The notes: generated from the sequence alone by a model not told the origin. A stretch of 64,000 nt of DNA from an uncultured Desulfobacteraceae bacterium (GCA_964631805.1 CAZWAE010000001.1:190-64189), one strand, 5' to 3'. Shown: positions 20,067 through 42,614, counted from the first letter of the stretch. Program-made: numbers and translations.

Positions 20067-20082
20067 ACAACAGACGAACGCC

Positions 20083-22650: not shown

Positions 22651-23424
22651 TCAAAAAATCTGCCACCACTTTTTCTTGGGAGGTAAAAAGGGTTCGGGGC
22701 AGAAAACCGTTCTGCCGGCCAGCACCGCCCGGGGCCGATCCCGGACCATGGCGTTGGCGTCGGCCGGATTGCCCAGTATTTTCGCGGCAACCGCAACGGC
22801 CTTAGATAGGATCGGTGGACGGTTGTCCGATGAATGGGCATCCGTGGCAATAAAATGGGCCATCCTGCAACGAATCAAGGTGTGGGCGCTGTCCATGGCT
22901 TCCCTTCCGAAGGCCCCTGTAACGCTCATGGCGGTTACCTGGATGAGGCAGCCCATGGTGCAAAGTTCGAACATGAGGTCGGGCCTGTTTCGAAGCAGGG
23001 GATGGCGTTCGGGATGCGTGACGATGGGTGTAATCCCGCTTAATTTGAGCTGGAACAGCTCCTCCTTGAACCCGGAAGGGATAAATTGCCCGGGAAATTC
23101 CACGAGCATGTAGGCACCGGTATCGTTGATCGTGGCGACACGGCCGCCTCTTACCTGTTCCACCATCGCGGTGCAGATATGGACGTCCGATCCGGAGATG
23201 AGTGCCAGGGGCAACCGCTCCCGGTCAATCGTTTTCTGCAATTGTGCCACACCGTCTTTGACCTGCTTCAGATCATTTTCGTACACACCGTTTAAGGTGT
23301 GGGGAGTGGCCACGATGGTATGGATGCCGTCTGAAACCGCCACATGTGCCATGGCCAGGCTTTCCGCAATATCGGCAGCACCATCATCGACTTTGGGCAA
23401 TATGTGGCAGTGGATATCGATCAC
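22651..23424 (-). CDS. PHP-family protein-tyrosine phosphatase (CpsB/YwqE type)
   Basis: N-terminus MIDIHCHILPKVDDGA...ATPH matches CpsB/CapC Mn-dependent phosphatases. Its start overlaps the stop of the Wzc-like kinase by 4 nt. Confidence 0.85.
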   Translation of the reverse strand: MIDIHCHILPKVDDGAADIAESLAMAHVAVSDGIHTIVATPHTLNGVYENDLKQVKDGVAQLQKTIDRERLPLALISGSDVHICTAMVEQVRGGRVATINDTGAYMLVEFPGQFIPSGFKEELFQLKLSGITPIVTHPERHPLLRNRPDLMFELCTMGCLIQVTAMSVTGAFGREAMDSAHTLIRCRMAHFIATDAHSSDNRPPILSKAVAVAAKILGNPADANAMVRDRPRAVLAGRTVFCPEPFLPPKKKWWQIF

Positions 23425-25670
23425 GAATGGGTTTCGGAATGTCTTTTCCGCTGGGCTTTCTTTCGTTTTCTACCATCTTCCCCGTAGTAGTAATAGTAGT
23501 ACTGATAATAGTAGTAGCTGTCGCGTCGGGCACTGACACCGTTAAGTACCGCACCGAGAATTTGGCCCCGGGCCGTCCGGACCTGGGCAACGCCGTTTTG
23601 TATCACCTGCCGGGGCGTCTCCCCCACCCGGACCACCAATAACGTGCCATCAACCACCTGGGATAGAATCACCGGGTCGGTCACGGCGGTCAATGGCGGC
23701 GAGTCAATAATGATGCGCGTATACCGTTTCCTGAGTGCATCCGTAAGGGCGACCATTCTCTTGGAGCCAAGTATCTCCGAAGGATTGGGTGGAATGGGGC
23801 CGCAGGGGATCAGATCGAGGTTATCGACCCCCGAGTCCACCATACAACTCTTGAAATCCGCAGCGCCCACCATGATGCTGGAGATACCGTTTTCACGATC
23901 CACATCGAACACCTTGTGCATCCGGGGGCGCCGCATATCGCAGTCGATCAATGCGACCCGCGATCCGGCATTGGCCATGGTAATGGCCAGATTGGCGGCA
24001 CAAATAGTCTTGCCTTCATCTGGCCCCGCGCTGGTCACCAGAATCACCTGGGGTGCCTCATCCGCGGATGAAAAGAGAATACCGGTTCGAATGCCGCGAA
24101 AAGATTCGCTGGCCGTCGATTTGGGGGAGTGCAGGGTTACCAGATCACCGGGGATGCCGTTTTGCGACGCTTTCGTTTCCATGGCCGGCACCATCCCCAG
24201 ATAGGGAATGCCCAGGTAGTTTTTCACCTCCTCCGGCATTTTAATGGTGTTGTCCATATACTCCAGAAAAAATGCCAGACCGATGCCCAGGGTCAAACCG
24301 ACCACCATGGCCAGCAGGACGTTGAGTTTCTTCTTGGGTTTGACAGGATTTTCCGGCACTTCCGCCCGGTCCACCACGCGGATGTTCCCGGTTTTCATCT
24401 CCTCGGTGAGAGAGGTCTCCTTGAATCGCTTGACCAGCAGTTCGTACATATTCCGGGCGCTTTCCGCCTGCCGGCGGAGCACACCGTACTGGACCGCCTT
24501 CTGGTTCATCTGCAGGCTGTCCTGTTTTTGGGCCGCCAGCGCCTTCTTGAGGGTTTCTTCCCGGGCCAATGCAATTTTATAGTTGTTCCGCAAAGAGTTG
24601 ATGACCCGTTTGACTTCGGTGGCCTTTCTTTTTTTCAGGTCCTTCAGCTCGGAGTCGATGGCCAGCATTTTCGGGTGCTGCCGTCCATATTTCTTGGAAA
24701 GCTCGGACATGCGCGTGTATAGATTGACCTCCATCTTCTTGATCTCACGGACCAGATCGTTGGCCAGCACCTCCGGAATGGAATCGAGCATGTCCGGGGA
24801 TTTTTCCACGGAAAGGGCCTGGCGGTAGCGGGTTTCCGCTTCTACCCGCTTGGCTTCCGCTTCCACCACCTGCTGGTTCAACTGGGCCAGTTTTTGGGCC
24901 GTGATCTGTTCGGCATCGCTGGAAAAATCGGTGATAATACCATGTTGTTCCTTGTACCGCAGCAGGGCGTTTTCCGCGATTTCCACTTTGCTTCGTTCAT
25001 CATCGATGCGTTCGCTGAGCCAGAGAACGGCATCCTTTGCCGCGTTCAACTTGGTCTCGAGGTTCTGGTCGATGTAGGCACGAACCAGTTCATTGGCCAT
25101 TTTTGCCGCCAAACCCGCGTCCGTCGCTTCCACGCGGACATCCACCAGCCGGCTGTTGCGAATGGGCTCGATACTGACCCGGTTGATAAAGGATGACACC
25201 AATGCGGAATCGGTTTTCTCGGTATTCTCATCGCCACTTTCGGGCCCTGTTTTCAACAGGGATACCGTCCATTCGGTCCACCAGGCGATACTCTCTTTGA
25301 ACCAGGCCTTGGTAGTTGATACAATATCGTCCTTGGGCGGCGGGAAGAACTCCGGGCTGCTTTGCAGGTCCAGCTTCCGGATCACGTCCCTGGCCACGGC
25401 ACGGCTTTCGATGATCTTGTACTGGGTCTGGTAGTAGTCGGAACCCGTGGCATCCACCGCCATCACTTCCTGGATGGACATCAGGTTCGGGTTTTCCTTT
25501 TCGATGACGATGCGGGTCGATGCCTGGAAAATGGGGGTGGTGGTGAAAGTGTGGACAGACACGGTCAGCACCACCAGCATAAACAGGGAAAAGACGGTCC
25601 ACCGCCTTTTGGAGAGAACGCGCAGGTAGTCGCGCAGATCGATGGTTTCTTCGTCGTAGGTGTCGTTCAT
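23421..25670 (-). CDS. polysaccharide co-polymerase / tyrosine autokinase (Wzc / GumC-EpsG type)
   Basis: 749 aa with a Wzz-like N-terminal TM, a periplasmic coiled coil and a second TM. The BY-kinase domain has Walker A (SAGPDEGKT) and a C-terminal Tyr cluster (RRDSYYYYQYYYYYYGEDG). Confidence 0.9.
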   Translation of the reverse strand: MNDTYDEETIDLRDYLRVLSKRRWTVFSLFMLVVLTVSVHTFTTTPIFQASTRIVIEKENPNLMSIQEVMAVDATGSDYYQTQYKIIESRAVARDVIRKLDLQSSPEFFPPPKDDIVSTTKAWFKESIAWWTEWTVSLLKTGPESGDENTEKTDSALVSSFINRVSIEPIRNSRLVDVRVEATDAGLAAKMANELVRAYIDQNLETKLNAAKDAVLWLSERIDDERSKVEIAENALLRYKEQHGIITDFSSDAEQITAQKLAQLNQQVVEAEAKRVEAETRYRQALSVEKSPDMLDSIPEVLANDLVREIKKMEVNLYTRMSELSKKYGRQHPKMLAIDSELKDLKKRKATEVKRVINSLRNNYKIALAREETLKKALAAQKQDSLQMNQKAVQYGVLRRQAESARNMYELLVKRFKETSLTEEMKTGNIRVVDRAEVPENPVKPKKKLNVLLAMVVGLTLGIGLAFFLEYMDNTIKMPEEVKNYLGIPYLGMVPAMETKASQNGIPGDLVTLHSPKSTASESFRGIRTGILFSSADEAPQVILVTSAGPDEGKTICAANLAITMANAGSRVALIDCDMRRPRMHKVFDVDRENGISSIMVGAADFKSCMVDSGVDNLDLIPCGPIPPNPSEILGSKRMVALTDALRKRYTRIIIDSPPLTAVTDPVILSQVVDGTLLVVRVGETPRQVIQNGVAQVRTARGQILGAVLNGVSARRDSYYYYQYYYYYYGEDGRKRKKAQRKRHSETHS

Positions 25671-25890: not shown

Positions 25891-27009
25891 CTAAAAGAAA
25901 CTCTCCGGTACAACGATCACATCCCCCGGCTGGATGAGGATATCCTGGCCTTTTTTTCCGGCCTCGGTGATTTCATCCACTTTGACCTCGATGATCTTTT
26001 CGACACCATCCTCCACCCGGATGATCCGGGTGCGATTCCGCGCCGCAATGGGGGTGAATCCACCGGATTTGCCGATGGCTTCCACCAGGGTAATCTCTTT
26101 TTCCAGGTAGGCGTAGGATCCGGGCGCCTGCACCTGGCCGATGATATAAAAGTAATCCGCTTTGGGGATATAGATCAGGTCTTTGTTCGTCAGTGGAAGA
26201 TTGGAGAACTGGTCGCCGCCTTTGAGCAATGCCGGAAGATCGATTTTTATAACGATTTTGCGCTGGTTCTCGGCTCCGGGGTTCTCCGTTCGAATAATCA
26301 TCCCCTGTTTGCCGCCCTGTTCGAAATCGATGCCCCCTGCCTTGGAGATGGCGTCCAGCAGGCGCTCCTGCTCCCTTAAGGCATAGGATCCCGGTTCTTT
26401 GACCGAGCCGAGCACCATGAACTGCTTGCTGAGGTAATCGGTCACGATGACGGAAACGTGGGCATCCAGCATAAACTGCCCCTCGGCGAGTTTCAGCGCA
26501 ATGCTGTTTTCAATTTCCGATGTGGTCATACCGGCCACCTTCAGCCGGCCGATCAGCGGAAACGAAATAAAACCGTCTGCGCTGATGCGAACCTTTTCCC
26601 GCGACAGATCCTCCTCTTCGTAAACAATGATATCGATAATGTCGTACCCGCCGACCCGGTAATCCCGATCTTTGACCACCTTTTCACCGGCGGGCAGGGC
26701 CAGGTACTCCTCCACCGAGTAGTTGGGCGTCTGCTCGACCACTTTTTCCAGTTCGACATCACCCGTGGCTTCATCTTCCTGGGCTTTTCTGAACTCGGCG
26801 AGCTGTGCCAGTTCCTCCTCCCCGAGATCCTCAAGGGCAGCGTCCGAATTGGACACTTTGGTGACCTGCACCACTTCGCCACCGGTCACGCACGCAAAAA
26901 TCGAGATGCCGACGGCAATCACACCCAACAACCGTAAAACCGCATAATTTTTCATGGAATCGCTCAACATCCTCTGAATGGTTGTTTTTTCGAACCTTTT
27001 CAAACCCAT
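25891..27009 (-). CDS. polysaccharide export protein (Wza-like, Poly_export + SLBB domains)
   Basis: 372 aa with a signal/lipobox-like N-terminus and the motifs YRVGGYDIIDIIVYEE and GRLKVAGMT..E, plus repeated SLBB-like segments (PGSYAL, PGSYAY). Confidence 0.85.
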   Translation of the reverse strand: MGLKRFEKTTIQRMLSDSMKNYAVLRLLGVIAVGISIFACVTGGEVVQVTKVSNSDAALEDLGEEELAQLAEFRKAQEDEATGDVELEKVVEQTPNYSVEEYLALPAGEKVVKDRDYRVGGYDIIDIIVYEEEDLSREKVRISADGFISFPLIGRLKVAGMTTSEIENSIALKLAEGQFMLDAHVSVIVTDYLSKQFMVLGSVKEPGSYALREQERLLDAISKAGGIDFEQGGKQGMIIRTENPGAENQRKIVIKIDLPALLKGGDQFSNLPLTNKDLIYIPKADYFYIIGQVQAPGSYAYLEKEITLVEAIGKSGGFTPIAARNRTRIIRVEDGVEKIIEVKVDEITEAGKKGQDILIQPGDVIVVPESFF

Positions 27010-27209: not shown

Positions 27210-29972
27210 TCAGGGGCGTTCCGGAATGCTATCCAGCCATTCCAACGCATATTTGGCCCACACGTCGTCGGGAAACTCTTCAAGCACCCGTCTGAATGCA
27301 ACTGCCGCCGCTTGGTGACGATGGAGCATGAATTGGCACTTACCGATGTGAAACAGTATCTCCGCATAATTTCGGGCATCCGGAAAATCGATCAGGGTCT
27401 TTTGGAAAACGGAAAGGGCCGCTTCCCAGTTTTTTTCTTTGTAATGGGTGATGCCATAGAAAAAAGAGGTCTCATCACTCACCGAAGAACCGGGAAATTC
27501 AGCCAAGGCGGTTTTCAATACTTCCCTTGCCGCTGCAAACCGCTCCTGTTTCACCAGATCCATACCGGTACGGTACATGATGGTGGCATCGCGGTTGTGC
27601 ACCAGAAAAATCGTCCAGACGGCACTGCCCAAGAGCAACAATACAGTTGCCTGTAGAATGGGCTTTCGTTTTTGCACCGGTACCATTTTGGAAATTCCTG
27701 ACCAAACAGATTCCCCCCATCGATTGAATTGCTGGGCGTTATCAGATACCCGCGCCGCCGGTACCGGAAATAGGTGACGCATAAACCGCATTAAAAAAGG
27801 TGACGTGATGAAAAACATCAACAGACCGGCAACGGTCAGAACCTGGCCCAGATGATTGGGAAAGGTCGTTGAAAAGTAAAGCCTTACACGGTTCTTTTTG
27901 GGGTACACCAGCATGAATGAGGGAGACACCAGATAGACCCGTTCAGCCCCCTCCACCTTCCAGTTGGGGTGGTAGGAAACCCGAACCAGATGCGGTTTTC
28001 CCAGATGGGGCGTTTCGAAAACGATCTCCTCCGGAGATATGGATTCGTTGATCAACCGGCTGTCATCGTGAATGGAATGGGGCTTTTTTTCTCTTCTCTC
28101 TTCCAGAAAGTGGTCCGGAAGCCGGTCGTGAAAGATGGTTTTGAACCGCTTTTTATCTTCGGGACCGAGCCGTTTTTTGAAAATGACCGGCACCCTCAAA
28201 TCTCCTTTCCGGAACCACTGATATGCATTTTGCTTCCAGTTGCCGCCCACCATCAACACCGGATCGTATTCTGCCAGCGACACGTAGCGATCGAGGTTTC
28301 CCGTATATCGATAGATGGTAAAGGGCGGAAATTCCTTTTCGCGCACCACCTCCGGATATGCCCCCAGCATCTTTTTCAGCTTGGCACCGACGGCAATGAT
28401 GTGGCTGACGTTGAAAAGACGCAGATGGGCCAGTGCCCGATCGATCCGAACATGGGAATAGTTGTATTGGGGCAGGGGCCTTGAGGGCGTTGCTGAGATT
28501 TCAGACTGGATGTAGAACACAAACGGCGAGGTCGGAGAGGACTGGGGGTAGAGGCCCTCCAGTGTGGAACGGCCGGAAAAAAGGGGCAGCATCTCAAATG
28601 CCCGCAGAGAACCCGCCTTGGCGGTCAAATCGTTGTGTTCGTAAACCACCCGCGGGTCCTGAAGACTTCCCCGAAGATGGTCGTTGACCCCCTTGAACTG
28701 CTTCCATACCGCTTTTTTCTCAAAACCGTTATAGTCCCACTGGATCCAGTTGGGAATGTAGTTGACCTGCGAGTTCACCCACAACAGGGTGGCCACCGCC
28801 AACAGCACGGCTGTCATTCCCCGTGCGCGGACGCGCCGAATGCACTTTCCCAGCCCGATGGCACCCAGCATCACCAGGGTCAACTGCAGGAAAGGAATGA
28901 ACCGGATATCCACCACGCCGATCCGGTGTGCCACCAGATAGAAAACTCCGGCGGCAACCGAAATCACCCACAGGTAGATCTCGGCATGGATTGTTGCCTC
29001 GTCGGCATCGTTTGTTTGGAAAAGGCCCCGCAACCAGCCGGTCTCCAACCTGCCGGGCACACCCCATTTCATGCACAAGCGCCGGGCAATCAGCAAAAAC
29101 AGCCCGACGCAGGCAAGCACCACGGCCGGAAGCAGGATCGGCGGAAACACCTCCCATATATCTTTTATAATCCAGATAAAATTGTTGCTGGTGGTGTAAG
29201 GTGTGAACCACAACAGTTGCACAATCCAGAACCCCAATAAGAAAAAAGCCAGGGCATTGACCCTGAGATAATACCAGATTTTTCTGCCGAACCGGTCGGT
29301 GGTGAACAGCAGGAATGCGGTTACGCACACGCCGAACAGGATGGTGTATCCGTGGCTGAATCCCACCAGGGCCAACAATATGGCATTGGCGCGAACCCAT
29401 TTGCCCTCCGTCAACCCACGATGGAAGGTTCCGATGTAAAGATAGAGAAACGCCATCCCGATCCCATATGAAAACTCGCCGGCCAGCGTGCTGGGGATGT
29501 TGCCACCCCACATGGAATTGGCTTCCATAAACAGGAACATCAGGGAAAAAGCCGCACCGATGAGTGCCGTGCCATAGTGAAACCGCAGATGACGAAGGCA
29601 GGCATAGACACAAAAAGGCAGGAGGAAAGGGCTTGATGCCGAGACCAGTTTGAAGGCTATTTTGAGTGGAACGAGCCATTCCAATGCCGCCATGACAAGG
29701 AACGGAAATGGGAAGTAAAACTGAAACAATGGAAACCCGGCGTAGTTTCCCGGCATCCATCCGATGATTTTCAAACTGGGCAGAAGCGTTCGAACGAAAT
29801 AGTGTGCCGTCAGGTATTGGGAACACATGTCCCCGCCTGCGGTAGTGGTTTCCAGCAGCAGATATGCGGGATGATAGTAGCTGAACAGAAACCCGACGAT
29901 CAGGCCGAAAACCGCCAGGCAGGAGACGATCCTTTTTAGAGAGACTATACTGGGGGATGCGCTGCTGTTCAA
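27210..29972 (-). CDS. large polytopic membrane protein with C-terminal TPR domain (possible GT-C-like glycosyltransferase; function unproven)
   Basis: 920 aa with more than 10 predicted TM helices in the first ~420 aa, a soluble middle domain, one more TM, then YbgF/BamD-like TPR repeats (last ~130 aa). The stop abuts the start of the next gene. Confidence 0.55.
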   Translation of the reverse strand: MNSSASPSIVSLKRIVSCLAVFGLIVGFLFSYYHPAYLLLETTTAGGDMCSQYLTAHYFVRTLLPSLKIIGWMPGNYAGFPLFQFYFPFPFLVMAALEWLVPLKIAFKLVSASSPFLLPFCVYACLRHLRFHYGTALIGAAFSLMFLFMEANSMWGGNIPSTLAGEFSYGIGMAFLYLYIGTFHRGLTEGKWVRANAILLALVGFSHGYTILFGVCVTAFLLFTTDRFGRKIWYYLRVNALAFFLLGFWIVQLLWFTPYTTSNNFIWIIKDIWEVFPPILLPAVVLACVGLFLLIARRLCMKWGVPGRLETGWLRGLFQTNDADEATIHAEIYLWVISVAAGVFYLVAHRIGVVDIRFIPFLQLTLVMLGAIGLGKCIRRVRARGMTAVLLAVATLLWVNSQVNYIPNWIQWDYNGFEKKAVWKQFKGVNDHLRGSLQDPRVVYEHNDLTAKAGSLRAFEMLPLFSGRSTLEGLYPQSSPTSPFVFYIQSEISATPSRPLPQYNYSHVRIDRALAHLRLFNVSHIIAVGAKLKKMLGAYPEVVREKEFPPFTIYRYTGNLDRYVSLAEYDPVLMVGGNWKQNAYQWFRKGDLRVPVIFKKRLGPEDKKRFKTIFHDRLPDHFLEERREKKPHSIHDDSRLINESISPEEIVFETPHLGKPHLVRVSYHPNWKVEGAERVYLVSPSFMLVYPKKNRVRLYFSTTFPNHLGQVLTVAGLLMFFITSPFLMRFMRHLFPVPAARVSDNAQQFNRWGESVWSGISKMVPVQKRKPILQATVLLLLGSAVWTIFLVHNRDATIMYRTGMDLVKQERFAAAREVLKTALAEFPGSSVSDETSFFYGITHYKEKNWEAALSVFQKTLIDFPDARNYAEILFHIGKCQFMLHRHQAAAVAFRRVLEEFPDDVWAKYALEWLDSIPERP

Positions 29973-29973
29973 T

Positions 29974-30858
29974 TCAGTCCCTTTTTTTACCAGTTGAAGT
30001 CGTTGCTGTTTCCCTGAATTGGAAATAAACGATCACACCCAACAGGATGACGGCCACAAACACCCAAACCCAGAAGGTCCTTTTAAACCAGTTTTCCTGT
30101 TCAGCTATCTCGAGGGTAGGCTGGACGATCGCTGTTTGGTGTTGGCCGTCGGCATCGAATTCGAGAAAACAATGCACCGGATAGGTGGCGCCCGATTTAG
30201 CGGTAAAATTGCGCACCCGGAAGATCAGGGTTTCCCTGCCCTTTGCGGGAAGGGTGAATTCAATGCGATCACGATCCGCGGACAACTCACGGGGAACCGA
30301 AAGACGGGCCGTAATACGCCTGGTTTTTTCCGCAAGGTTTCGCACCTCGATTTTCAGGCTGCCCGGCCGGCTCCTAAGGGGTATCCGTGCATTCATCGTC
30401 CGACCGGAAAGCTGCTGATCGACATCGTCACCCACCCGGAAGGTCATTCCGGACGTGGCCGAAAACGGGTAACGGTTGGCGTCGTGGTAATCTAAAAGGA
30501 CACTCAACGGGTATCGTCCGGCTCGAATCCCGGGTTCGTTTTTAGAAAACGTAAAATGAGCGGGAGCATTCACTTCCATCCGCTTGACAACCCGGCTTTT
30601 CAGCGTCTCACCAAAAATGGTGAGAAATACCTGAACGTCGCGGGCGGCCTCATTGCCATGGTTGGTCACGTCGATGGTAACGGAAACCCTTTCGCCGGAC
30701 ACGTTTACGCTCATTTTTGTCGTCATGGATATAGTGCCGGCATGGGCAGGCGTAAATAGGACGCCGGAAAAGGCCATAAGGAGAACCATGCCCGTTAAAA
30801 ACCTTCTGCAAAGGTATTTCTTATGTCTTCGGATGGCGTCGTATTGCTTATCGATCAT
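29974..30858 (-). CDS. exported protein with two beta-sandwich (CARDB/NEW3-like) modules and a C-terminal TM anchor
   Basis: Signal peptide (MVLLMAFSGVLFTPAHAG), two similar ~110-aa segments (VxVxNxG..A..V) and a C-terminal hydrophobic helix WVWVFVAVILLGVIVYF. Confidence 0.45.
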   Translation of the reverse strand: MIDKQYDAIRRHKKYLCRRFLTGMVLLMAFSGVLFTPAHAGTISMTTKMSVNVSGERVSVTIDVTNHGNEAARDVQVFLTIFGETLKSRVVKRMEVNAPAHFTFSKNEPGIRAGRYPLSVLLDYHDANRYPFSATSGMTFRVGDDVDQQLSGRTMNARIPLRSRPGSLKIEVRNLAEKTRRITARLSVPRELSADRDRIEFTLPAKGRETLIFRVRNFTAKSGATYPVHCFLEFDADGQHQTAIVQPTLEIAEQENWFKRTFWVWVFVAVILLGVIVYFQFRETATTSTGKKRD

Positions 30859-30950
30859 TTGCGACGATGCGGATTTTTTATGTTTAAAACCTGCGATAAT
30901 CTGTGCCTGCCCCGTAGTTCCGGTAGATGGTACTGGGTAATCTGCGGATT

Positions 30951-30980
30951 AAAAAAAAAGGACCCGCTGTTGCAGGTCCT
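30951..30980 (-). terminator. Rho-independent terminator after the OM beta-barrel gene
   Basis: Minus strand reads AGGACC-TGCAACAGCG-GGTCCT followed by T9, about 27 nt downstream of the stop at 31007. Confidence 0.7.
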
Positions 30981-31006
30981 TTCTCGATTCTTAGGTGGCA
31001 TTGGGA

Positions 31007-32290
31007 TTAATAGGTCGCGCTGATCTCCAAAGACACGCGATTTTGGTCCGTATCTTCCACCAGTGTCGTCTTGTCCTTTTCGCTTCGGCTGCCCTCGTAT
31101 TGAAGTGTGGCGTTGAGCCATTTTTTGATCTGGTAATCGAGACCGATCTTTCCTGTAAATGTGTCTTCTTCCTGGCCCGGTGTGGCGGCCAGCAATTCGT
31201 TGTAGTCTTTGTGCTCGTAATCCACGCTGAGGTTCAGATTCAGCCGCTCGATGATTCCCTGTTTGAGCGCGACCCCAAAGTTGGTCTTGTTGTACCAGCT
31301 TCTCTGGGCTTCATCCACGGTGTCATAGGAATAGCCCGCCGTTCCTTTGAGTTCCGTTCGCTCCCGCACTTTCCAGGTCAGGTCGATGGAGGTCAGGAAA
31401 TTACCGTCCGGATCATCCTGGGGATTTCCATCCACGTTGGTGTCGTCGTCAAAATCACCGTAACCAAAACCGAACAGCAGATCACCGGTGATCTTTGCAG
31501 AGGGGCTGAAGGTCAGGCCCACCAGGAAATCAAGTGTATCGATATTGTAGGTATTGCCTGAATTGAACCCCCGGGAGGTGGCACCATCTTCCTGTTTGGG
31601 GAAATCGGACTGGGCGTAGGTCACCACGAATTTCACGGCCGTTTTGGGGGTCAGTCCCCAGTAAGTCGTCAGCGCAACAATGTTCTCGTCCTCATCTTCC
31701 CACACATCCTCAAAGGCATCGTAACGAACGGTACGAATGGTATAATCAAGCTGCCCGGCAAACCGGTCGTCAAATGCTTTTCCGTAGCCCGCTGAAAGTT
31801 TAAACGAATTTTCGTACCCTGTTTTCCGATCCCCTTCATCGTCGGCCAGCGTTTCCGTGATGTTGCTGTAGGGGTCCTCATTGTCCTTGTATTCCTCGGC
31901 TACCCCCACCCAGTATTTGGAGGGGAACAAGTAGCCCGCATCCACATTGAACTTCACCTTTGTGTAGTTGTTCTCGTCGTGGTCCGAATAGACCACCGGA
32001 GCAATCTCGATCCCCGTTTTAAAATTCGGTCCCGGTTCATTGGCCTCTTTCATATATTCGAGTGCAAGCCCGCCGGTGATGGTATGGATGACATCATCAT
32101 ATTTTTCAAGCCCCTCGATCTCCGAAAAAATATTGTCGTCGTATTTGACGTTGTATTTGATGGTGGGAACCACTTTTAAGCGTCCCATTTTGATGTTGCC
32201 CTGGGCTTCCGCCGGTCGCGGGCAACACAGCGTGACAGCGAGCAACAACACACCAACCAGGTACAGCGAAGCTTTTGATGTCAGAGTCAT
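31007..32290 (-). CDS. outer-membrane beta-barrel protein (EPS-locus-associated)
   Basis: Signal peptide ending AEAQ, alternating amphipathic beta-strand pattern rich in Y/G/D/T, and a C-terminal LEISATY with terminal aromatic residue. Confidence 0.7.
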   Translation of the reverse strand: MTLTSKASLYLVGVLLLAVTLCCPRPAEAQGNIKMGRLKVVPTIKYNVKYDDNIFSEIEGLEKYDDVIHTITGGLALEYMKEANEPGPNFKTGIEIAPVVYSDHDENNYTKVKFNVDAGYLFPSKYWVGVAEEYKDNEDPYSNITETLADDEGDRKTGYENSFKLSAGYGKAFDDRFAGQLDYTIRTVRYDAFEDVWEDEDENIVALTTYWGLTPKTAVKFVVTYAQSDFPKQEDGATSRGFNSGNTYNIDTLDFLVGLTFSPSAKITGDLLFGFGYGDFDDDTNVDGNPQDDPDGNFLTSIDLTWKVRERTELKGTAGYSYDTVDEAQRSWYNKTNFGVALKQGIIERLNLNLSVDYEHKDYNELLAATPGQEEDTFTGKIGLDYQIKKWLNATLQYEGSRSEKDKTTLVEDTDQNRVSLEISATY

Positions 32291-32503: not shown

Positions 32504-35500
32504 TCATTTTCCTGCCAATTCATCGGCCATCAGCACTGCCAACCGCTCATCGTCGTCGATATGACCGGTGTAGGGTGTTGTTGTTGGTGCACTCGTCGTG
32601 GTGGTTGTTACGGTCGTGGCCGTTGTAGCCGTTGTAGCCGTTGTGACTGTTGTAGCCGTTGTAGCCGTTGTGGCTGTTGTAGCCGTTGTGGCTGTTGTAG
32701 CCGTTGTGGCCGTTGGCGGCGGCGCATCTGTTGGCGGCGGCGCATCCGTCGGCAGCGGCGCATCCGTAGGCAGTGGCGCATCCGTCGGCAGTGGCGCATC
32801 CGTCGGCAGCGGCGCATCCGTCGGCAGCGGCGCATCCGTCGGCAGCGGTGCATCTGTCGGCAGCGGCGCATCCGTCGGCGGCAGATCGGTGCTCTGGACA
32901 ATCTGCTCGGTGTTGGTGGTTATGACATTAGTGGTCGATTCGGCCGTCTGTTGAGCGGTATCGGCTTGTTGGGTGACCTGATCGGCCAATGCCTGAGCAT
33001 CTGCTTCGTTCGTGGCAGTAGCAGCCTGGGTCGCCAACTGATTGGCACTGTCGGCAGCCTGTGTGGCCTGTTGTGCGGTTGTCGCGGCCGTATTGGCTGC
33101 GGCAGTCGCCTGTTGTGCCGTGTTGGTATCGCCGACGGCCTGGGCGGATGCCGCAAATGAATTGGCATCTGCCACAGCGGCATTGGCTTCCGCTGACGCA
33201 GCGGCGGCCCGGGCTGCTTCTGCCGCAGCCTGGGCGCCGGCTTCTGTTGGGGCCGTGGCAGCCGCAGTCGCTATGTTAGATGCCGTATTTGCAGCGGTTT
33301 GAGCCTGGTTGGCGGCGGTCTGCGTTGCAGCGACAGCGGTCTGAGCGGCGGCGGCGGCTTCGGTATTGCCGGCAGCCTGTGCAAATGCCACATCCGAATT
33401 GGCCTCGGCCGTGGCAGCGGTGGCCTCGGCTGCCGCAGCGGACGCCTGGGCGGCGGCAGCCGCCGCATCAGCGGCAGCACCGGTAGCGGTGGCCGCCGTC
33501 TGGGCCTGGGTGTCGGCTGTTGCGGCTACCGTTTGGGCCTGGGTAGCAGCGGTGGCCGCATTGTCAGCCGCAGCCTGGGCGGCAGCGGCGGCAGCAGTAT
33601 TACCTTCCGCCTGAGCAGCAGCTACGTTGGCGTTGGCATCAGCGGTCGCCGCATTGGCCTGAGCGGCAGCAGCAGATGCCTGGGCGGCGGCGGCGGCGGC
33701 TTCCGCTGCAGCGCCGGTGGCCGTGGCGGCCGTTGTGGCCTGTGTATTGGCGGTTTCAGCAACCGTCTGGGCCTGGGTGGCTGCTTGAGCTGCATTGTTC
33801 GCAGCCGTCTGGGCGGCGGCGGCGGCAGTAGTATCGCCTTCGGCCTGGGCCGTGGCGACGTTGGCGTTGGCATCGGCCGTGGCCGCATTGGCCTGGGCGG
33901 CGGCGGCGGAGGCCTGGGCGGCAGCAGCGGCAGCTTCCGCTGCTGCACCGGTGGCCGTGGCGGCCGTGGTGGCCTGGGTGCTGGCGGTATCAGCCGCGGT
34001 CTGGGCCTGGGTGGCCGTGTTGATGGCGGCATCGGCGGCCGTCTGGGCGGCCTGGGCCTGTTCCGCCTGGCCGGTGGCCGCAGCGGTGGCGACTTCCGTC
34101 GTCGCCTCTGCAGCAGAAGCGTTGGCTTGGGCAGCAGAAGAAGCGGCCTGAGCAGCGGCAGCAGCCGCATCAGCAGCGGCCGTGTTTCCGGTCGCAACAG
34201 CCTGCTCAACCACAGCTACTTGCTGCTGGGCGGTCTGGGCAGCTGCGGTTGCCTGGCTGGCGGCAGTGGCGGCCTGCGCGGCGGCGGCACTGGCAGCGGC
34301 CGCCTCATCGGGGTTACCCGAAGCAGCGGCGACGTTGGCCTGGGCTGAAGCAACGGTTGCCTGGGCGGCAGCGGCTTGAGCGGCTGCCCAGGCAGCGGCC
34401 GCCGCTGCCTGGGCGGCTACAGTGGAAACACCCGACCGGGTCGCAACCCTCGCAGCTTCCTGGACCGCTTGATACCTGTTATTGGCTTCCTGAAGAGCAC
34501 TCTGAGCGTTGTTCAATGCAGCCTGGGCGGCAGCGAGTTGGGCATTGGTCTCCTGGGCATATGCCGTGGCAATCAAGCTGGAATAGGCATTGGCCAGCCA
34601 GGCCAGAATCGAATCCAGGGTGTTCTGCCTGTAGGATATGGTTTTGCCTTCGATCTTCCGGTTGAACCGCAGGGCTTCTTCCACACCGGCTTCAGCGGCG
34701 GTTACACCGGCAGAGGCCGTGGTCCGAGCGGCTTCGGCCTTGGTTTTAGCCAGTTCCGCACGGTGTGCAGGTGCTTTTCGGTTTAGTTTTTTGGCTCGAT
34801 CCTTAGCGGCATTATCCAATTGCGTTGCCTGGGTCTGGGTCCCCAAGGCTTTTTGTGCGGCCTGCTGGAAGGGCAGTTTCTCCACCTGGGGATCACCGGC
34901 CGGCAATTCCGATACCGGTACGGCCACATCCGAGGCTTTCATCTGCTGATCCTTAGGCACGGTGATTTTTTGACCACCGGTTACATCCGCGTCCCCAATC
35001 ACATCATAAGAGGTGCTGCCGTCACCGGTCACTTCAATGGGAAAATCGGTTCCCCGGATGGCGGCCACCATGGTGGGGGTCCTGACATTGAATTTAGGTC
35101 CGGTCTTTTTGCGCTTGATGTTGAACATGATCTTGCCGAGCAGTACATCGACACGGCGCGACACGACCTTGCCCCTGGAGAACAGTCCGCGTTTTTCCCG
35201 TTTCTGATTCAAGGTGATGTTGGCATTCACATCCAAACGCATCTCACTGCCGTCCACCATGCGGACCTCCGCCCGTCCGCTGGTGGTAACGATTTTATCG
35301 GAGTTGTAGACGGGAAAAGGCACTTTTTTCAGTTTGCCCCATTTACCCTTGGAGCGTACCACCACATTTCCGGTGTAACTGACAATATCACCGATTTTGG
35401 CAGAGGTTCCGGAATCTTTCTGAGCGTTGGCGTCCGTCTGGTAAACAAAAGCATGAAACGGAAAAATCATGCTTAATGCGATCACATAAACCAGTATCCT

Positions 35501-35509
35501 TTTTCCCAT
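32504..35509 (-). CDS. secreted FecR-domain protein with a giant Ala/Thr/Gln-rich repeat region, (PTDAPL)n and (TTA)n repeats
   Basis: Signal peptide plus a FecR domain (GDIVSYTGNVVVRS...RAEVRMVDGSEMRL...TPTMVAAIRGTDF). A low-complexity region of ~650 aa follows, with a 78-aa periodicity. Then come 7x PTDAPL + 2x PTDAPP, a TTA/TTV run, and the short tail TTPYTGHIDDDERLAVLMADELAGK. Confidence 0.8.
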   Translation of the reverse strand: MGKRILVYVIALSMIFPFHAFVYQTDANAQKDSGTSAKIGDIVSYTGNVVVRSKGKWGKLKKVPFPVYNSDKIVTTSGRAEVRMVDGSEMRLDVNANITLNQKREKRGLFSRGKVVSRRVDVLLGKIMFNIKRKKTGPKFNVRTPTMVAAIRGTDFPIEVTGDGSTSYDVIGDADVTGGQKITVPKDQQMKASDVAVPVSELPAGDPQVEKLPFQQAAQKALGTQTQATQLDNAAKDRAKKLNRKAPAHRAELAKTKAEAARTTASAGVTAAEAGVEEALRFNRKIEGKTISYRQNTLDSILAWLANAYSSLIATAYAQETNAQLAAAQAALNNAQSALQEANNRYQAVQEAARVATRSGVSTVAAQAAAAAAWAAAQAAAAQATVASAQANVAAASGNPDEAAAASAAAAQAATAASQATAAAQTAQQQVAVVEQAVATGNTAAADAAAAAAQAASSAAQANASAAEATTEVATAAATGQAEQAQAAQTAADAAINTATQAQTAADTASTQATTAATATGAAAEAAAAAAQASAAAAQANAATADANANVATAQAEGDTTAAAAAQTAANNAAQAATQAQTVAETANTQATTAATATGAAAEAAAAAAQASAAAAQANAATADANANVAAAQAEGNTAAAAAAQAAADNAATAATQAQTVAATADTQAQTAATATGAAADAAAAAAQASAAAAEATAATAEANSDVAFAQAAGNTEAAAAAQTAVAATQTAANQAQTAANTASNIATAAATAPTEAGAQAAAEAARAAAASAEANAAVADANSFAASAQAVGDTNTAQQATAAANTAATTAQQATQAADSANQLATQAATATNEADAQALADQVTQQADTAQQTAESTTNVITTNTEQIVQSTDLPPTDAPLPTDAPLPTDAPLPTDAPLPTDAPLPTDAPLPTDAPLPTDAPPPTDAPPPTATTATTATTATTATTATTATTVTTATTATTATTVTTTTTSAPTTTPYTGHIDDDERLAVLMADELAGK
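32600..32714. repeat. 9-bp coding tandem repeat (gttgtRgcY)n encoding (TTA/TTV)n
   Basis: About 12 consecutive 9-bp units seen directly, in frame within CDS 32504-35509. Confidence 0.85.
32715..32876. repeat. 18-bp coding tandem repeat x9 encoding PTDAPL/PTDAPP
   Basis: Nine units of ggcRgYggYgcatcYgtN counted from 32715 to 32876, in frame within the CDS. Confidence 0.9.
33000..34200. repeat. 234-bp (78-aa) coding tandem repeats, ~4-5 copies with decaying identity
   Basis: acgttggcgttggcatc recurs at 33624 and 33858 (234-bp offset). The protein unit is ATADANANVA..TATGAAAEAAAAAAQASAAAAQANA. Confidence 0.8.
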
Positions 35510-35875: not shown

Positions 35876-38125
35876 TCAGGAATTTGTTACCACCCACTGC
35901 AACACGCGCTTTTGAAGCGCCTCGTTCTCAGGCGGTACGATTCCCAGAATAACGGTATCATCCGGATAGTATTCCCGCACCCGTCTGGCAGCCTTTTTCC
36001 AGGATTCGGGCTTTAATCGGAGCGACCGTTGGAAAAGATCCTGGAATTTGCGGATCCCTTCCTGCCGGGTGCGGACACTCCCCCCTGTTTCACCTGCTGT
36101 TTCTGGTTCGGTTTCGGGCAACAGATGCGCCCGCCATACCCAGTACCATGCACTGCTCATCAACAAATCCGGTTTCATCGGCGCCCACCGAGCCGCCGCA
36201 TCGAAACAGCGGTCCGCCGCCGGAAGCCAGCGTTCCATATAGTGGTAGGGATCATAGGTTTTGTAAGATAACCGATAACCCAGGTCATGCCATACATTGG
36301 CCAAAGTGGGGTTGAGAGAAAGGGTGTGGCGGAAAGCGGAAATCGCCTGTTCATTGATACGGTGTCGCGCTGTTTCCCCGGCGGCACCCATGGCGGCATA
36401 GGTGAGCGCACGGCGGAGATGATTTTCCGCATTGCCGGGTGCATATGAAAGTGCTGTTTCAACCGCCTCAGGATCCGGGTTCCAGTTGAGATTCAGAGTG
36501 GAGTTCCATTCCGTGGGACTGTGGATCTCGGATATAAAATGTCGGCCGGTGGCAATGATGGCACCCCCCAAACCCAGTAAAACCACCGCCCCGGCAACGA
36601 TGCGAACCGGCATTGCAGGCCGGATGGTTCGTTTCGCATAAAAAAACCGCTCCAGGTATCCCTTTCGTTGACGATGTACGACCACAAATCCGACTCCCGA
36701 AAGGGCAGAGAGGGTCAACGGTGTGGCGGGGATGTGCATGTTTATATCCATAAAACCGTAAAACCCCATGGACAGGAGCGCGCCCATAACCCCTGCACCG
36801 ATGCCCATGGCAAAACGATCCGATCGAGACCGCCAAACCCGGAAAATACCGACCCAAATACCCACAAAAAGGCCGATGAAGATCAGCAGACCGGCTATCC
36901 CGGTATCACAGCCGGATTCGATCCAGTCGTTGTGAGCATGTCCGCTGGAACTCACCTTATCCTTTTGATCCGCCATGTATCGTGGATAAAGATACCGGAA
37001 ATTCCCGCCCCCTACGCCCAAAACCGGATATTCTCCGATCATTGGCAGGATTTCACGGACCGTCTCCCGCCGAACATCCGACCTATTTTCCCCCTTATCA
37101 GGTGATGCGTTATGTCCGATGCCCAGATACATCCCGAAGCCAAGCAACGTCAGGCAGAAAAGCACCGGCGCAACATGCCGCCATCGGAAATAACGATGAA
37201 AGCCCACGATTCCCACTCCGGCAAACAGCGCTGCGGTCATCGATAGGATGCCCTCACGGGACCCGGACAGAAAAATCGCTAAACCCATAAAAATGGCAGC
37301 AAACAAAAGTATCCTTGTCCCTGGGTCGGCCGCTTCAGGCGCAAACCAGGCAACCACCCGCTGCACCAGCACCCGGCGCCCCCCCAATCCGGACACCATT
37401 CGCTTTTGTTTGGGCTGCCGGGCCACCATGCACCCCAGTGTCAGCAAAAGGGCCATCAGCAGATACCCTGCATAATGATTGGGTGCAATATAGGTGCCCG
37501 TGGCCCGGCCGGAAAACCGTGCATGCACCCACCACCATACACGCGGGGAATCGCTGGCAAGCTGATAGAATCCATAAATCGATTCGAAAAAGCCGACGGC
37601 AACAAGGGTGTAGACCATGCCCATTATTCGCTTTTTTGACGTGACCGTATGGACCACCAGAAAAAACATCCCCGCGCAGGACAATAGCTTCAGCCCCATC
37701 AGACGGACCGGATACCGGTAATAGGCGATACTGGTCCAGGTCGGGGGCCCGGCGCCGACCCCGGCCCCGTCAAGGGCCTGGTGCATCATCAATTTATCGG
37801 CATATCCCTTGGGGGAAAGAAACGCCACCCATGAGGCGGGCAGCGGCATCCATTGTATTCCAAATAGCAGGATCAGTAGAATCACCGGCAAACTTACAGG
37901 CGTTTTTATCCAGACTACAAAACCGTCTTTGTTCAAAAAAAAACGGTCCAACACCCACGTCCCCAGGAGACTGAACACCAGCACCTGAATTACGGAATAG
38001 GCCCATACATGGACGGATCCAAAGGCCAGCGGCGCAAACAACAACAAAAACAGGAGGCCGGCGTAAATAATCCGGTCGCAGGTTTTGGCCGGCTGGTTCA
38101 GGGGGATGAATTGCGAATTTTTCAA
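35876..38125 (-). CDS. Wzy_C (O-antigen ligase/polymerase-like) membrane protein with C-terminal TPR domain, paralog 1
   Basis: 749 aa with ~12 TMs and a Wzy_C core (GSREGIL...PVLGVGGGNF...GHAHNDWIESGCDTGIAG). A C-terminal soluble TPR-like region of ~230 aa follows. Confidence 0.8.
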   Translation of the reverse strand: MKNSQFIPLNQPAKTCDRIIYAGLLFLLLFAPLAFGSVHVWAYSVIQVLVFSLLGTWVLDRFFLNKDGFVVWIKTPVSLPVILLILLFGIQWMPLPASWVAFLSPKGYADKLMMHQALDGAGVGAGPPTWTSIAYYRYPVRLMGLKLLSCAGMFFLVVHTVTSKKRIMGMVYTLVAVGFFESIYGFYQLASDSPRVWWWVHARFSGRATGTYIAPNHYAGYLLMALLLTLGCMVARQPKQKRMVSGLGGRRVLVQRVVAWFAPEAADPGTRILLFAAIFMGLAIFLSGSREGILSMTAALFAGVGIVGFHRYFRWRHVAPVLFCLTLLGFGMYLGIGHNASPDKGENRSDVRRETVREILPMIGEYPVLGVGGGNFRYLYPRYMADQKDKVSSSGHAHNDWIESGCDTGIAGLLIFIGLFVGIWVGIFRVWRSRSDRFAMGIGAGVMGALLSMGFYGFMDINMHIPATPLTLSALSGVGFVVVHRQRKGYLERFFYAKRTIRPAMPVRIVAGAVVLLGLGGAIIATGRHFISEIHSPTEWNSTLNLNWNPDPEAVETALSYAPGNAENHLRRALTYAAMGAAGETARHRINEQAISAFRHTLSLNPTLANVWHDLGYRLSYKTYDPYHYMERWLPAADRCFDAAARWAPMKPDLLMSSAWYWVWRAHLLPETEPETAGETGGSVRTRQEGIRKFQDLFQRSLRLKPESWKKAARRVREYYPDDTVILGIVPPENEALQKRVLQWVVTNS

Positions 38126-38228: not shown

Positions 38229-39206
38229 TCATGTCATCCTTTTCCCATGACCCTCAGATACTTCAGGCAGGCTCATCTCTGCAACCAGATAATTGGGGCG
38301 CCGCTTGACCTCCATGAAGGTTTTTCCGATATATTCACCACATAGGCCTATAAAAATCAGCTGAATACCACCCAGCAAATATACCCCGGCCATGACCGAA
38401 AGCCAGCCGGAAACGGCTTTTGTGGTAAAGAATTTGATACACAACGCATACAAAACGTATGAAAAACTGGAAAGCGCGATGACAACACCGGCGATAGCCG
38501 CCGCACGTAATGGGAAAACAGTAAACGCCGTGATCCCGTTTACTGCGAGACTCAACATTTTTCTCAGTGAATATTTGCTCTTTCCCATATATCGAGGTGA
38601 TGGGGTATATGGAATCTCGTATTGTCTGAATCCCAGCCATGCGATCAGCCCCCTGTAGAAAATCGTACTCTCGTTAAAACGCTTGAGGGAGTCCACCACT
38701 TTCCTGTCCATGAGCCTGAAATCCGCCGCGCCATGCTTGAGATCGAAGTCCGTTAGTTTATTCAGCAAGCGATAGTACCATCCGGCAGATTTTCGCTTGA
38801 GTCTCGAGAAATCCTTAGCATCGCGTCGGGTCGTAAACACAACATCATAGCCCTCCTGCCATTTTTTCAGCATTTCTGGGATCAGATCAGCCGGATGCTG
38901 CAAGTCACCGTCCATGGTGATCACGGCATCACCGGAACTCCAGTCCAATCCGGCCCGGATGGCATTCTGGTGGCCGAAGTTCCTGGAAAAGGAAATAAAG
39001 TATATATTCGGTTTGGCAGCTGATGCTGCTTTGATGATCTCAAGGGTTCTGTCAACACTCCCATCATCAACGAACAAGATATCGTAGCTTATCTCAATAT
39101 CGTCGAGAATGGCCAGTGCATCAATGGCCGCTGAAATATTTTCCTCCTCATTAAAAACCGGAATGACGACTGTGGCCTTCTGTACTTTTGGATTTTCCAT
39201 ATGCAC
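38229..39206 (-). CDS. family 2 glycosyltransferase, polyprenyl-phosphate sugar synthase type (ArnC/DPM1-like) with C-terminal TMs
   Basis: VVIPVFNEEENI...FVDDGSVDRT...DGDLQHP motifs and two C-terminal TM helices. The likely true start is the ATG at 39200; the ORF-track start is a GTG at 39206. Confidence 0.88.
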   Translation of the reverse strand: MHMENPKVQKATVVIPVFNEEENISAAIDALAILDDIEISYDILFVDDGSVDRTLEIIKAASAAKPNIYFISFSRNFGHQNAIRAGLDWSSGDAVITMDGDLQHPADLIPEMLKKWQEGYDVVFTTRRDAKDFSRLKRKSAGWYYRLLNKLTDFDLKHGAADFRLMDRKVVDSLKRFNESTIFYRGLIAWLGFRQYEIPYTPSPRYMGKSKYSLRKMLSLAVNGITAFTVFPLRAAAIAGVVIALSSFSYVLYALCIKFFTTKAVSGWLSVMAGVYLLGGIQLIFIGLCGEYIGKTFMEVKRRPNYLVAEMSLPEVSEGHGKRMT

Positions 39207-41139: not shown

Positions 41140-41227
41140 TCGACTGCTTACAATTTCTTATCGATCAATTGTTGAGACCCCTTGCTGACTCGCGGTCAAG
41201 CCCACCATCAAATGCCGATATTCCGTC

Positions 41228-41256
41228 TTGACATCGGATTATTATCGTATTATTAT
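41228..41256 (+). promoter_or_regulatory. sigma70-like promoter of the Phd/RelE cassette
   Basis: TTGACA (41228-41233), 17 nt, TATTAT (41251-41256). It overlaps the short inverted repeat cgtat-N4-atacg, a candidate operator. Confidence 0.5.
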
Positions 41257-41276
41257 ACGAATTATTTTCCAATTTT

Positions 41277-41564
41277 GTGGTGGGAGAATATAAGATGCAT
41301 TCAAAAGATTATTTGTCAGCGACCTCGCTTTCCAAAAAAACATCTGCCACGTTAGATTCACTTGAAAAAGGAGAATCTGAAAAGCTGATCATTCTAAAAA
41401 ACAATTCACCCAAAGCGGTCCTTATGTCCATGGAAGCCTATGAGATCATGGAAGAAGAATTGGAAGATTTGAGACTGACCGCTCTTGCCATTTCACGCTT
41501 GCAGAGCTTCGATCCTGATAGCATGCTCACACATGAAGAATTGATGGCTAAGTTTGCCAAATGA
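41277..41564 (+). CDS. Phd/YefM-family antitoxin
   Basis: SATLDSLEKGESEKLIILKNNSPKAVLMSMEAYEIMEEELEDL is a typical Phd/YefM fold sequence. The probable start is the ATG at 41295, preceded by GGGAG. It overlaps the toxin gene by 4 nt. Confidence 0.85.
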   Translation: MVGEYKMHSKDYLSATSLSKKTSATLDSLEKGESEKLIILKNNSPKAVLMSMEAYEIMEEELEDLRLTALAISRLQSFDPDSMLTHEELMAKFAK

Positions 41565-41845
41565 CTTGGTCAATTTTATACCACCCGGATGTTGAGGATG
41601 ATCTAAAAAGCGTGGGTCCTTCCATGGCTCGCAGGATAATGCGATCCATCGACGCGAAACTCACCCAAGCTCCTTTACAGTTTGGCTCCCCACTATCCGG
41701 AAATCTGGGCAGCTTTCGTAAACTTCGGGTTGGTGACCACAGGGTCGTTTACCAAGTTCAGGGGAAAACGATCATTGTTTTTGTCCTGGCGGTCGGCGCT
41801 CGGAGAGACAAAGAAATCTATAGGTCTGCACTGAAAAGAAAATAG
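41561..41845 (+). CDS. RelE/ParE-family toxin
   Basis: 94 aa; LSGNLGSFRKLRVGDHRVVYQVQGKTIIVFVLAVGARRD is the canonical RelE/StbE core. Confidence 0.88.
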   Translation: MTWSILYHPDVEDDLKSVGPSMARRIMRSIDAKLTQAPLQFGSPLSGNLGSFRKLRVGDHRVVYQVQGKTIIVFVLAVGARRDKEIYRSALKRK

Positions 41846-42006
41846 CCCAGCGAAGCTACAATTCACCAGCTCAACAGCTATACAAAATGTGAACGGAAAG
41901 CAGTGAACTTAAAACAGGGAAATGGCCATTGTAAGCAGTAAGATGTGAACAGTGAAAAATATGTACATTTACGAATAATTTTTCTGTTTCCCCTGCTCAC
42001 TGCCGA
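41846..42006. repeat. heptamer tract in mixed orientation (GTRARCR units followed by ctgctcac units)
   Basis: gtgaacggaaagcagtgaac...gtaagcagtaagatgtgaacagtgaaaaa, then ...ctgtttcccctgctcactgccgactg. Confidence 0.65.
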
Positions 42007-42602: not shown

Positions 42603-42614
42603 CGAGCGTAACGT

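Follow-up and report, generated by a model that had tools for sequence, protein, structure and literature searches.

The question raised by this locus is whether four neighbouring envelope genes form one module, and what the largest of them does. The locus lies in a 64,000-nt stretch of DNA from an uncultured Desulfobacteraceae bacterium (GCA_964631805.1, CAZWAE010000001.1:190-64189; hereafter the window). Next to a gene for an exported FecR-domain repeat protein, three minus-strand open reading frames (ORFs) encode an outer membrane beta-barrel of 427 aa, an exported beta-sandwich protein of 294 aa, and a polytopic membrane protein of 920 aa with tetratricopeptide repeats (TPRs). The original prediction joined these three genes to the FecR gene as a candidate envelope assembly or protein-glycosylation module. 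We propose instead that the region comprises two separate things, namely (i) a porin for exopolysaccharide (EPS) export and (ii) a two-subunit, periplasm-facing glycosyltransferase of the GT-C type that would act, together with a family 2 glycosyltransferase (GT2), on the poly-threonine tails of exported proteins; we assign this reading a probability of roughly 0.4.

The 920-aa protein matches the Pfam family PF10131 far above its gathering score (130.3 bits versus 26.4, E = 1e-37, residues 83-564). PF10131 is a member of the GT-C clan (CL0111) with the annotation "function unknown", and it is among the families nearest to the N-terminal domains of TMTC proteins by HHpred (PMC7801869). The AlphaFold2 (AF2) model of the protein, built on 58 homologs, has a predicted local distance difference test score (pLDDT) of 90.6 and a predicted template modelling score (pTM) of 0.90. 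Its top Foldseek matches, all with probability 1.00, are STT3 from the yeast and human oligosaccharyltransferase (OST; E = 9e-7 to 6e-6), AftA, AglB, ArnT, DPY19, and PglB, whereas a profile search of the PDB matched TPR proteins only and revealed no solved structure with sequence similarity to the membrane domain. The three C-terminal TPRs are most similar to YbgF/CpoB and BamD in Pfam and NCBIfam, and the TPR domain of the model resembles YbgF (2xev) with a TM-score of about 0.9. In the 58 homologs (37-60% identity), residues G46-G47-D48 of the first external loop (EL1) are invariant. Because of the PF10131 match, the structural matches to STT3, AftA, ArnT, and PglB, and the invariant EL1 aspartate, the 920-aa protein is, by predicted fold and family, a GT-C glycosyltransferase; the GT-C-like fold and the conserved acidic loop by which the original prediction had proposed to judge its glycosyltransferase idea are both found.

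The model contains 11 transmembrane helices and a helical hairpin, with nine helices and the hairpin preceding a soluble domain of about 300 aa and the remaining two following it. From the model helices and the positive-inside rule, the N-terminus is predicted to be cytoplasmic and domain 403-703 periplasmic, followed by a transmembrane helix (704-722), a basic cytoplasmic loop, a second helix (766-791), and a periplasmic TPR domain. The other invariant polar residues are E150, N152, W155, and N158 in the second external loop (EL2), D355 and R357 at the edge of a transmembrane helix, and the motif W409-x-x-W412-[DN]-Y414-x-G416-F-E right after the last core helix; all of the invariant polar residues would thus lie at the periplasmic face in the predicted topology. 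When the TMTC/PF10131 alignment of PMC7801869 is combined with our own Pfam alignment, D48 appears to be in register with the DD motif of TMTC1. At residue 52, after the GGD triplet, 97% of the homologs have His (GGDTxSHY) and the window protein has Gln (GGDMCSQY). The TMTC/PMT-like logic that the original prediction saw in this protein holds for the GT-C fold, seen in both the clan-level profile match and the model, and for the predicted periplasmic TPR domain; however, no PMT, PMT_2, TMTC-specific, MIR, YfhO, or STT3 Pfam match was obtained at E <= 10, for the whole protein or for its segments.

A single base separates the TGA stop codon of the 294-aa ORF from the TTG at which the 920-aa ORF starts, and the two genes probably form a unit of their own with coupled translation. 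The AF2 model of the 294-aa protein (pLDDT 86) consists of a signal-peptide helix, two beta-sandwiches (residues 45-252), a C-terminal transmembrane helix, and a short cytoplasmic tail, with the fold class resting on the DSSP assignment of the model and a weak Pfam match to CARDB. Word-indexed searches with this protein returned only 4-7 proteins, and its homologs were collected from genomic loci by tblastn and a hidden Markov model (HMM). For the comparison of gene neighbourhoods, we used 81 loci around GT-C homologs (1.29 Mb) and 80 control loci around CoaBC homologs (0.78 Mb). The profile of the 294-aa family is present in 55 of the GT-C loci and in none of the controls, mostly immediately upstream of the GT-C gene on the same strand. 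Moreover, in P0065, P0085, and P0092 and in 31 of 144 family representatives, the partner is naturally fused to the N-terminus of the GT-C protein via the transmembrane helix of the partner. The 294-aa protein is a dedicated partner or subunit of the GT-C protein, and that PF10131 enzymes of this kind work with such a beta-sandwich partner is, in our view, very likely.

The position of the barrel gene is different. Folding of 30945-30995(-) revealed a 14-bp hairpin followed by U9 (-21.2 kcal/mol, z = -5.3, none of 200 shuffles as good), which a consensus terminator scan did not pick up; this terminator divides the FecR/barrel unit from the partner/GT-C unit. The barrel protein matches BBP2_2 in Pfam (51.8 bits versus a cut-off of 23.7; 7.7e-14) and, weakly, EpsL in NCBIfam (40.3 bits versus a cut-off of 275) and TIGR03016. 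Its homologs occur in two of the 81 GT-C loci at 1e-10 and in about five at looser thresholds, and in L017, a locus from a Syntrophales metagenome-assembled genome, the homolog is directly beside Wza-Wzc. The Wza-like protein of the window (NCBIfam EpsE, 4.7e-49) has Poly_export and SLBB domains only in Pfam and is therefore ascribed to class 3 of the outer membrane polysaccharide export (OPX) proteins, which pair with 18-stranded Wzp porins (PMC9603273). WzpX (about 410 aa), one of the Myxococcus WzpX/S/B proteins (PMC9603273), is close in size to the barrel, which, as for EpsL in Methylobacillus-type eps clusters, is encoded in an EPS locus with a Poly_export and SLBB-type Wza; unlike in these systems, however, 4 kb separate its gene from wza, and the GT-C pair occupies the space between. 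Since few GT-C loci have a barrel, the L017 homolog neighbours Wza-Wzc, and the terminator intervenes, we lean towards the barrel being an EpsL/Wzp-type EPS porin that partners the helix-less Wza and stands outside the GT-C unit. In L017, the gene directly upstream of the barrel homolog (4882-6033(-)) encodes an Ala-rich repeat protein that carries a poly-Thr tail but no FecR domain, and Wza-Wzc follow the barrel; this order mirrors that of the window, thus the pairing of repeat protein and barrel may itself be conserved.

In the original prediction, the three ORFs with their 1-nt spacing and terminator, the more than 10 transmembrane helices, large soluble domain, and YbgF-like TPRs of the 920-aa protein, the two-module beta-sandwich protein with its C-terminal anchor, and the outer membrane barrel were all described correctly. 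Its view that none of the three proteins had an assignable function is superseded by the PF10131 and BBP2_2/EpsL matches, and the proposed link of the barrel to the GT-C unit is not supported, in view of the terminator, the fit to an EPS porin, and the rarity of the barrel in GT-C loci. As to the expected co-occurrence of the genes, it is observed for the GT-C/partner pair and fails for the four-gene module, because the barrel and the FecR protein accompany the pair in few lineages (L167, and L017 for the barrel). L167 represents one sister lineage, whose GT-C protein is 60% identical and which retains the FecR repeat protein, barrel, partner, GT-C, Wza, Wzc, Wzb, and CHASE2 cyclases.

With more than 1,500 matches in a word-indexed search and 4,523 clusters at 50% identity (E <= 1e-30), the family of the GT-C protein is a large one, and it is found in 298 GTDB species from Desulfobacterota, anammox Planctomycetota, Acidobacteriota, Gammaproteobacteria, Binatia, Margulisiibacteriota, and Actinomycetota as well as in several archaea. 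Its carriers include a metagenome-assembled genome assigned to Desulfatirhabdium butyrativorans (L071) and a Geobacteraceae relative (L051). The pair is commonly part of a wider cassette: a small ArnC/GtrB-like GT2, often abutting the GT-C gene, is present in 59 of the 81 GT-C loci versus 10 of the 80 controls, and a B12-binding radical S-adenosylmethionine (SAM) enzyme, whose gene often overlaps the GT-C stop codon, in 35 versus 4. GNAT proteins (13 loci) and YdjC-type deacetylases (8 loci) are rarer neighbours. The cassette is free-standing, with unrelated genes around it, in L085 and L086, and in L084 the same four gene types are present without being contiguous. After some cassettes come additional GT-C-like membrane proteins with fused PA14 domains (DUF2079+PA14 and PMT_2+PA14; L036 14729-16774 and L084 16593-21464), and in L084 also a PA14-only protein.

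The best PDB and NCBIfam matches of the neighbouring GT2 proteins are ArnC and dolichol-phosphate-mannose or hexose synthases. The GT2 of the window matches Synechocystis GtrB (PDB 5ekp; 1.1e-74) and ArnC (6e-51), both over the full length, and PgfS in NCBIfam (5.8e-85), and its homologs at 40-44% identity are encoded within about 0.5 kb of the GT-C gene in L019, L036, L050, L051, L053, L060, and L073 (37% in L082). These matches identify it as a putative polyprenyl-phosphate sugar synthase and the probable maker of the lipid-linked donor; a polyprenyl-phosphate-linked monosaccharide is the likely donor of the GT-C enzyme. The radical-SAM gene of the window (60314-61840) was considered as the cassette ortholog and rejected as a paralog, since it scores 213 bits versus 600-690 for the orthologs.

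The candidate acceptor in the window is the FecR protein, which is exported, matches Lsa33/FecR (1.5e-10), and contains 78-aa Ala-rich repeats, (PTDAPL)x9-10, and a (TTA)n/poly-Thr tail; at the DNA level its gene carries 9-nt, 18-nt, and 234-nt repeat arrays. A tblastn search with its N-terminal domain found no relatives, whereas an HMM built after the poly-Thr proteins had been noticed did find them. We counted as a Thr tract any 40 residues with 60% Thr or more, and in the neighbouring ORFs we identified about 18 distinct poly-Thr proteins in 17 of the 81 GT-C loci and none in the 80 control loci (Fisher p = 6e-6). The enrichment is Thr-specific: tracts of Ser, Pro, Glu, and Gly are absent, and the rare tracts of Val and Arg probably represent shadow reading frames of the Thr-tract DNA. 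The poly-Thr proteins come from several phyla, are not homologous to each other, and include FecR-domain, dockerin-bearing, and heme-motif proteins, pseudopilins, and lipoproteins, nearly all of them with signal, lipoprotein, or prepilin leaders. FecR proteins with poly-Thr are encoded in seven Desulfobacterota loci (the window, L167, L006, L168, L031, L034, and L059), and the ortholog in L167 has about 105 consecutive Thr. The original suggestion that the Thr/Pro-repeat protein is the substrate is therefore supported circumstantially, by the tract enrichment and the seven FecR loci; poly-Thr proteins are a plausible acceptor, which we put forward tentatively.

A precedent for such an arrangement exists in streptococci, where the GT2 and YfhO-type GT-C pairs GtrB+PgtC2 and PgfS+PgfM1 glycosylate extracytoplasmic, disordered poly-Ser/Thr regions and the substrate adhesins (Cnm etc.) are encoded in the pgf cluster (PMC12041528). 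From this precedent, the following scheme is derived for the window. On the cytoplasmic side of the membrane, the GtrB/PgfS-like GT2 would attach one sugar to undecaprenyl phosphate, and the lipid-linked sugar would then flip to the periplasmic side. The PF10131 enzyme would transfer the sugar at the periplasmic membrane surface, presumably via Asp48 of EL1 and the conserved residues of EL2 and the edge of the eighth transmembrane helix, with the beta-sandwich subunit, a single-pass protein, and the TPR domain in the periplasm holding the acceptor. The most likely acceptors would be disordered poly-Thr tails of exported proteins and, in the window, the FecR repeat protein. In common with the streptococcal systems, the window has a GtrB/PgfS-type GT2 paired with a GT-C enzyme, with PgfS as the best NCBIfam match of the GT2, and a candidate substrate gene nearby. 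In contrast to them, its GT-C belongs to PF10131 rather than YfhO, the acceptor is a predicted one, the family has a periplasmic TPR domain, a beta-sandwich subunit, and usually a B12 radical-SAM enzyme, and its hosts are mostly diderms and some archaea.

Two other groups of GT-C enzymes invite comparison. The eukaryotic protein O-mannosyltransferases TMTC1-4 and PMT (PMC7801869) resemble the 920-aa protein in having a GT-C membrane domain at the N-terminus, TPRs located on the side of catalysis, an acidic EL1 residue, and a donor that comes, or in the window would come, from a DPM1-like GT2; however, the 920-aa protein has a single invariant Asp (GGD) instead of DD/DE, three TPRs instead of 8-12, and an extra periplasmic domain of about 300 aa with two transmembrane helices before the TPRs. 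STT3, AglB, and PglB provide its best structural matches (6c26_A at E = 9e-7, 3waj, 6gxc) and likewise have a soluble domain after the last core helix, and the single-pass beta-sandwich partner recalls the accessory subunits of eukaryotic OST. The W-x-x-W-[DN]-Y-x-G-F-E motif stands at the place of the OST WWDYG motif by position only, as the motif itself differs; no WWDYG-bearing protein was found among the fetched loci, and an OST profile thus had no source. Unlike in these enzymes, the linked GT2 points to a monosaccharide-phosphate-lipid donor rather than an oligosaccharide-diphosphate-lipid.

Several observations weigh against the action of the GT-C pair on poly-Thr tails. No function or biochemistry was found for any PF10131 member in the libraries and literature searched. 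A poly-Thr neighbour is present in only about 21% of the GT-C loci, and the control loci in which poly-Thr is absent are housekeeping neighbourhoods that may under-represent secreted proteins. The archaeal family members have no TPR domain. The radical-SAM enzyme that is conserved in the cassette has no role in the proposed scheme, and its cassette ortholog is not in the window. From the three-component Gtr system, the GtrB-like GT2 and the GT-C are present here; no GtrA-like flippase and no conserved cluster of small flippases was seen among the neighbours, in a survey that included no search aimed at GtrA, and there is no room for one beside the window GT2. Furthermore, a Wzy_C protein with a TPR-like tail is encoded directly upstream of the FecR/poly-Thr gene (35876-38125(-)) and could be a PglL-like O-oligosaccharyltransferase acting on the Ala/Ser/Thr-rich region of the FecR protein. 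A further point, the embedding of the pair in EPS export genes in the window and some other loci, leads to the first of three alternatives.

The GT-C pair may decorate a glycan: before export, it would add in the periplasm a Gtr-type side-branch sugar from undecaprenyl-phosphate-sugar to the EPS of the locus, to lipopolysaccharide, or to some other glycan of the envelope. In the window and in the syntenic L167, the barrel and Wza genes flank the pair, and Wza/Wzc adjoin it in L017, four anammox loci, and L061; Wza is present in 7 of the 81 GT-C loci versus none of the 80 controls. Because of this enrichment beside the cassette, a polysaccharide acceptor is a serious rival that fits equally well. 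TPR domains are also known from polysaccharide secretion proteins, in agreement with such a role, and three-component systems of a GT2 and a GT-C enzyme for glycans are common (PMC11127046). On the other hand, more than 70 of the 81 loci have no EPS genes nearby, with L085 and L086 as examples of cassettes alone among unrelated genes, and the spread of the family over archaea, Actinomycetota, and many diderm phyla means that there is no single shared glycan acceptor. A glycan acceptor also leaves the Thr-specific tract enrichment unexplained, and we regard it as unlikely.

A lower probability still, which makes it quite improbable, is given to modification of a membrane lipid or another small envelope acceptor, in the manner of ArnT and lipid A or HpnI/J/K and hopanoid head groups, with the radical-SAM enzyme remodelling the sugar head group. 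The cassette neighbours invite this idea, as the GT2 is accompanied by a B12 radical-SAM enzyme with HpnJ as its best NCBIfam match (1e-37 to 1e-41) and a YdjC deacetylase with HpnK as its best match (2e-40); moreover, ArnT is among the fold matches, and the autonomy of the cassette suits a universal lipid acceptor. However, the HpnJ and HpnK scores are far under the cut-offs (128-143 versus 577 bits and 139 versus 233, respectively) and equal those of unrelated B12 radical-SAM and deacetylase families, and an HpnI/J/K identity of these neighbours was rejected as a generic, sub-threshold resemblance. YdjC is found in only 8 of the 81 loci, a lipid acceptor would not lead one to expect a TPR domain or a beta-sandwich subunit with two domains, and the poly-Thr enrichment is again left unexplained. 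The weakest alternative, that barrel, beta-sandwich anchor, GT-C/TPR protein, and FecR protein are one envelope assembly or secretion machine in which the barrel exports or anchors the repeat protein, has in its favour the contiguity of the four genes in the window and L167 and the repeat protein upstream of the L017 barrel, and is nevertheless very improbable given the strong terminator that splits the genes, the scarcity of barrel homologs in GT-C loci, the occurrence of FecR and poly-Thr near GT-C with no barrel in L006, L031, L034, and L059, and the suitability of an EpsL/BBP2_2 barrel and a class-3 OPX protein for the known Wzp export pairing.

The two-part organization that we favour is embedded in a large minus-strand EPS locus (Table 1), which also encodes four Wzy_C proteins, the GtrB-like GT2, a GT4/GT1 enzyme, a Bac_transf initiating transferase, and two CHASE2 cyclases.

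Table 1. Coordinates of the GT-C pair, its predicted domains, and associated genes in the window.
Feature	Position (nt)	Strand	Details
CpsB-type phosphatase gene	22651-23424	-	EPS locus
Wzc gene	23421-25670	-	EPS locus
Wza-like OPX lipoprotein gene	25891..27009	-	372 aa; Poly_export + 2 SLBB, no Wza_C helix
GT-C glycosyltransferase gene	27210..29972	-	920 aa, TTG start, Pfam PF10131 (PTPS_related)
Predicted CpoB/YbgF-like TPR domain of 920-aa protein	27213-27599		residues 792-920; AF2 model
Predicted two transmembrane helices of 920-aa protein	27600-27863		residues 704-791; AF2 model
Predicted periplasmic domain (~300 aa) of 920-aa protein	27864-28763		residues about 403-703; AF2 model
Predicted transmembrane core of 920-aa protein	28764-29972		residues 1-403; AF2 model
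Beta-sandwich partner gene	29974..30858	-	294 aa
Intrinsic terminator 3' of barrel gene	30949..30985	-	hairpin + U9
Outer membrane beta-barrel gene	31007..32290	-	427 aa, BBP2_2/EpsL-like
Exported FecR-domain repeat protein gene	32504..35509	-	1001 aa
GtrB/ArnC/PgfS-type GT2 gene	38229..39206	-	325 aa

The four Wzy_C (WaaL/Wzy/PglL-family) paralogs are all on the minus strand (35876-38125, 39421-41139, 48527-50881, and 56623-58179); the second of them, which is O-antigen-ligase-like, has an Arg-rich, nonsense-looking tail beyond about residue 480 and has probably undergone a frameshift or is in decay. A low-GC island (0.43-0.45) at 41200-48400 contains small toxin-antitoxin-like pairs (41277-41845, 42336-42893, and 43806-44356; recognized by eye from translations), a truncated CapD/PglF-like C-terminal fragment (43135-43500(-)), and two AAA_14/DUF4143 ATPases (45137-46351 and 47185-48348); it resembles an insertion by which a sugar-dehydratase gene was interrupted. 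At 17249-20066(-), a CHASE2 ORF (663 aa) overlaps a cyclase ORF (280 aa) as if a single CHASE2-cyclase gene had been split by a frameshift, and the gene is intact (931 aa) in L003, another contig with the same GT-C. Homologs of CHASE2 adenylate/guanylate cyclases are encoded near the GT-C cassette of Desulfobacterota in six of the 81 loci (L025, L028, L032, L045, L059, and the window, at 17249-22482), with about 2 kb between the FecR/poly-Thr gene and the CHASE2 gene in L059, and in L034 a response regulator with GAF and HD-GYP domains lies between the GT-C and FecR/poly-Thr genes. These neighbours suggest a signalling link.

Beyond the window, the partner, the PF10131 GT-C/TPR protein, the ArnC-like GT2, and the B12 radical-SAM enzyme may together constitute a widespread and so far undescribed system of protein O-glycosylation that places a monosaccharide, which the radical-SAM enzyme may modify, on poly-Thr mucin-like tails of exported proteins, with targets in Desulfobacterota that include FecR proteins, in loci that often carry CHASE2 cyclase genes; we advance this extension as a doubtful though testable possibility. 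Lipid-monosaccharide-dependent glycosylation by GT-C enzymes is a system of known kind, and no characterised member of this family was found in the libraries searched. Through its links to a beta-sandwich subunit, a lipid-sugar synthase, and possibly exported poly-Thr proteins, what is annotated as an anonymous "TPR repeat protein" becomes a glycosylation system open to test. If the acceptor is as proposed, this would be, as far as our search found, the first O-glycosylation of Ser/Thr tracts of the GtrB + GT-C type outside streptococci. It would extend to sulfate reducers, anammox bacteria, Acidobacteriota, methanotrophs, and some archaea, and hence to environmentally dominant diderm lineages, and it would provide a rationale for the long poly-Thr linkers that are common in their surface proteins.

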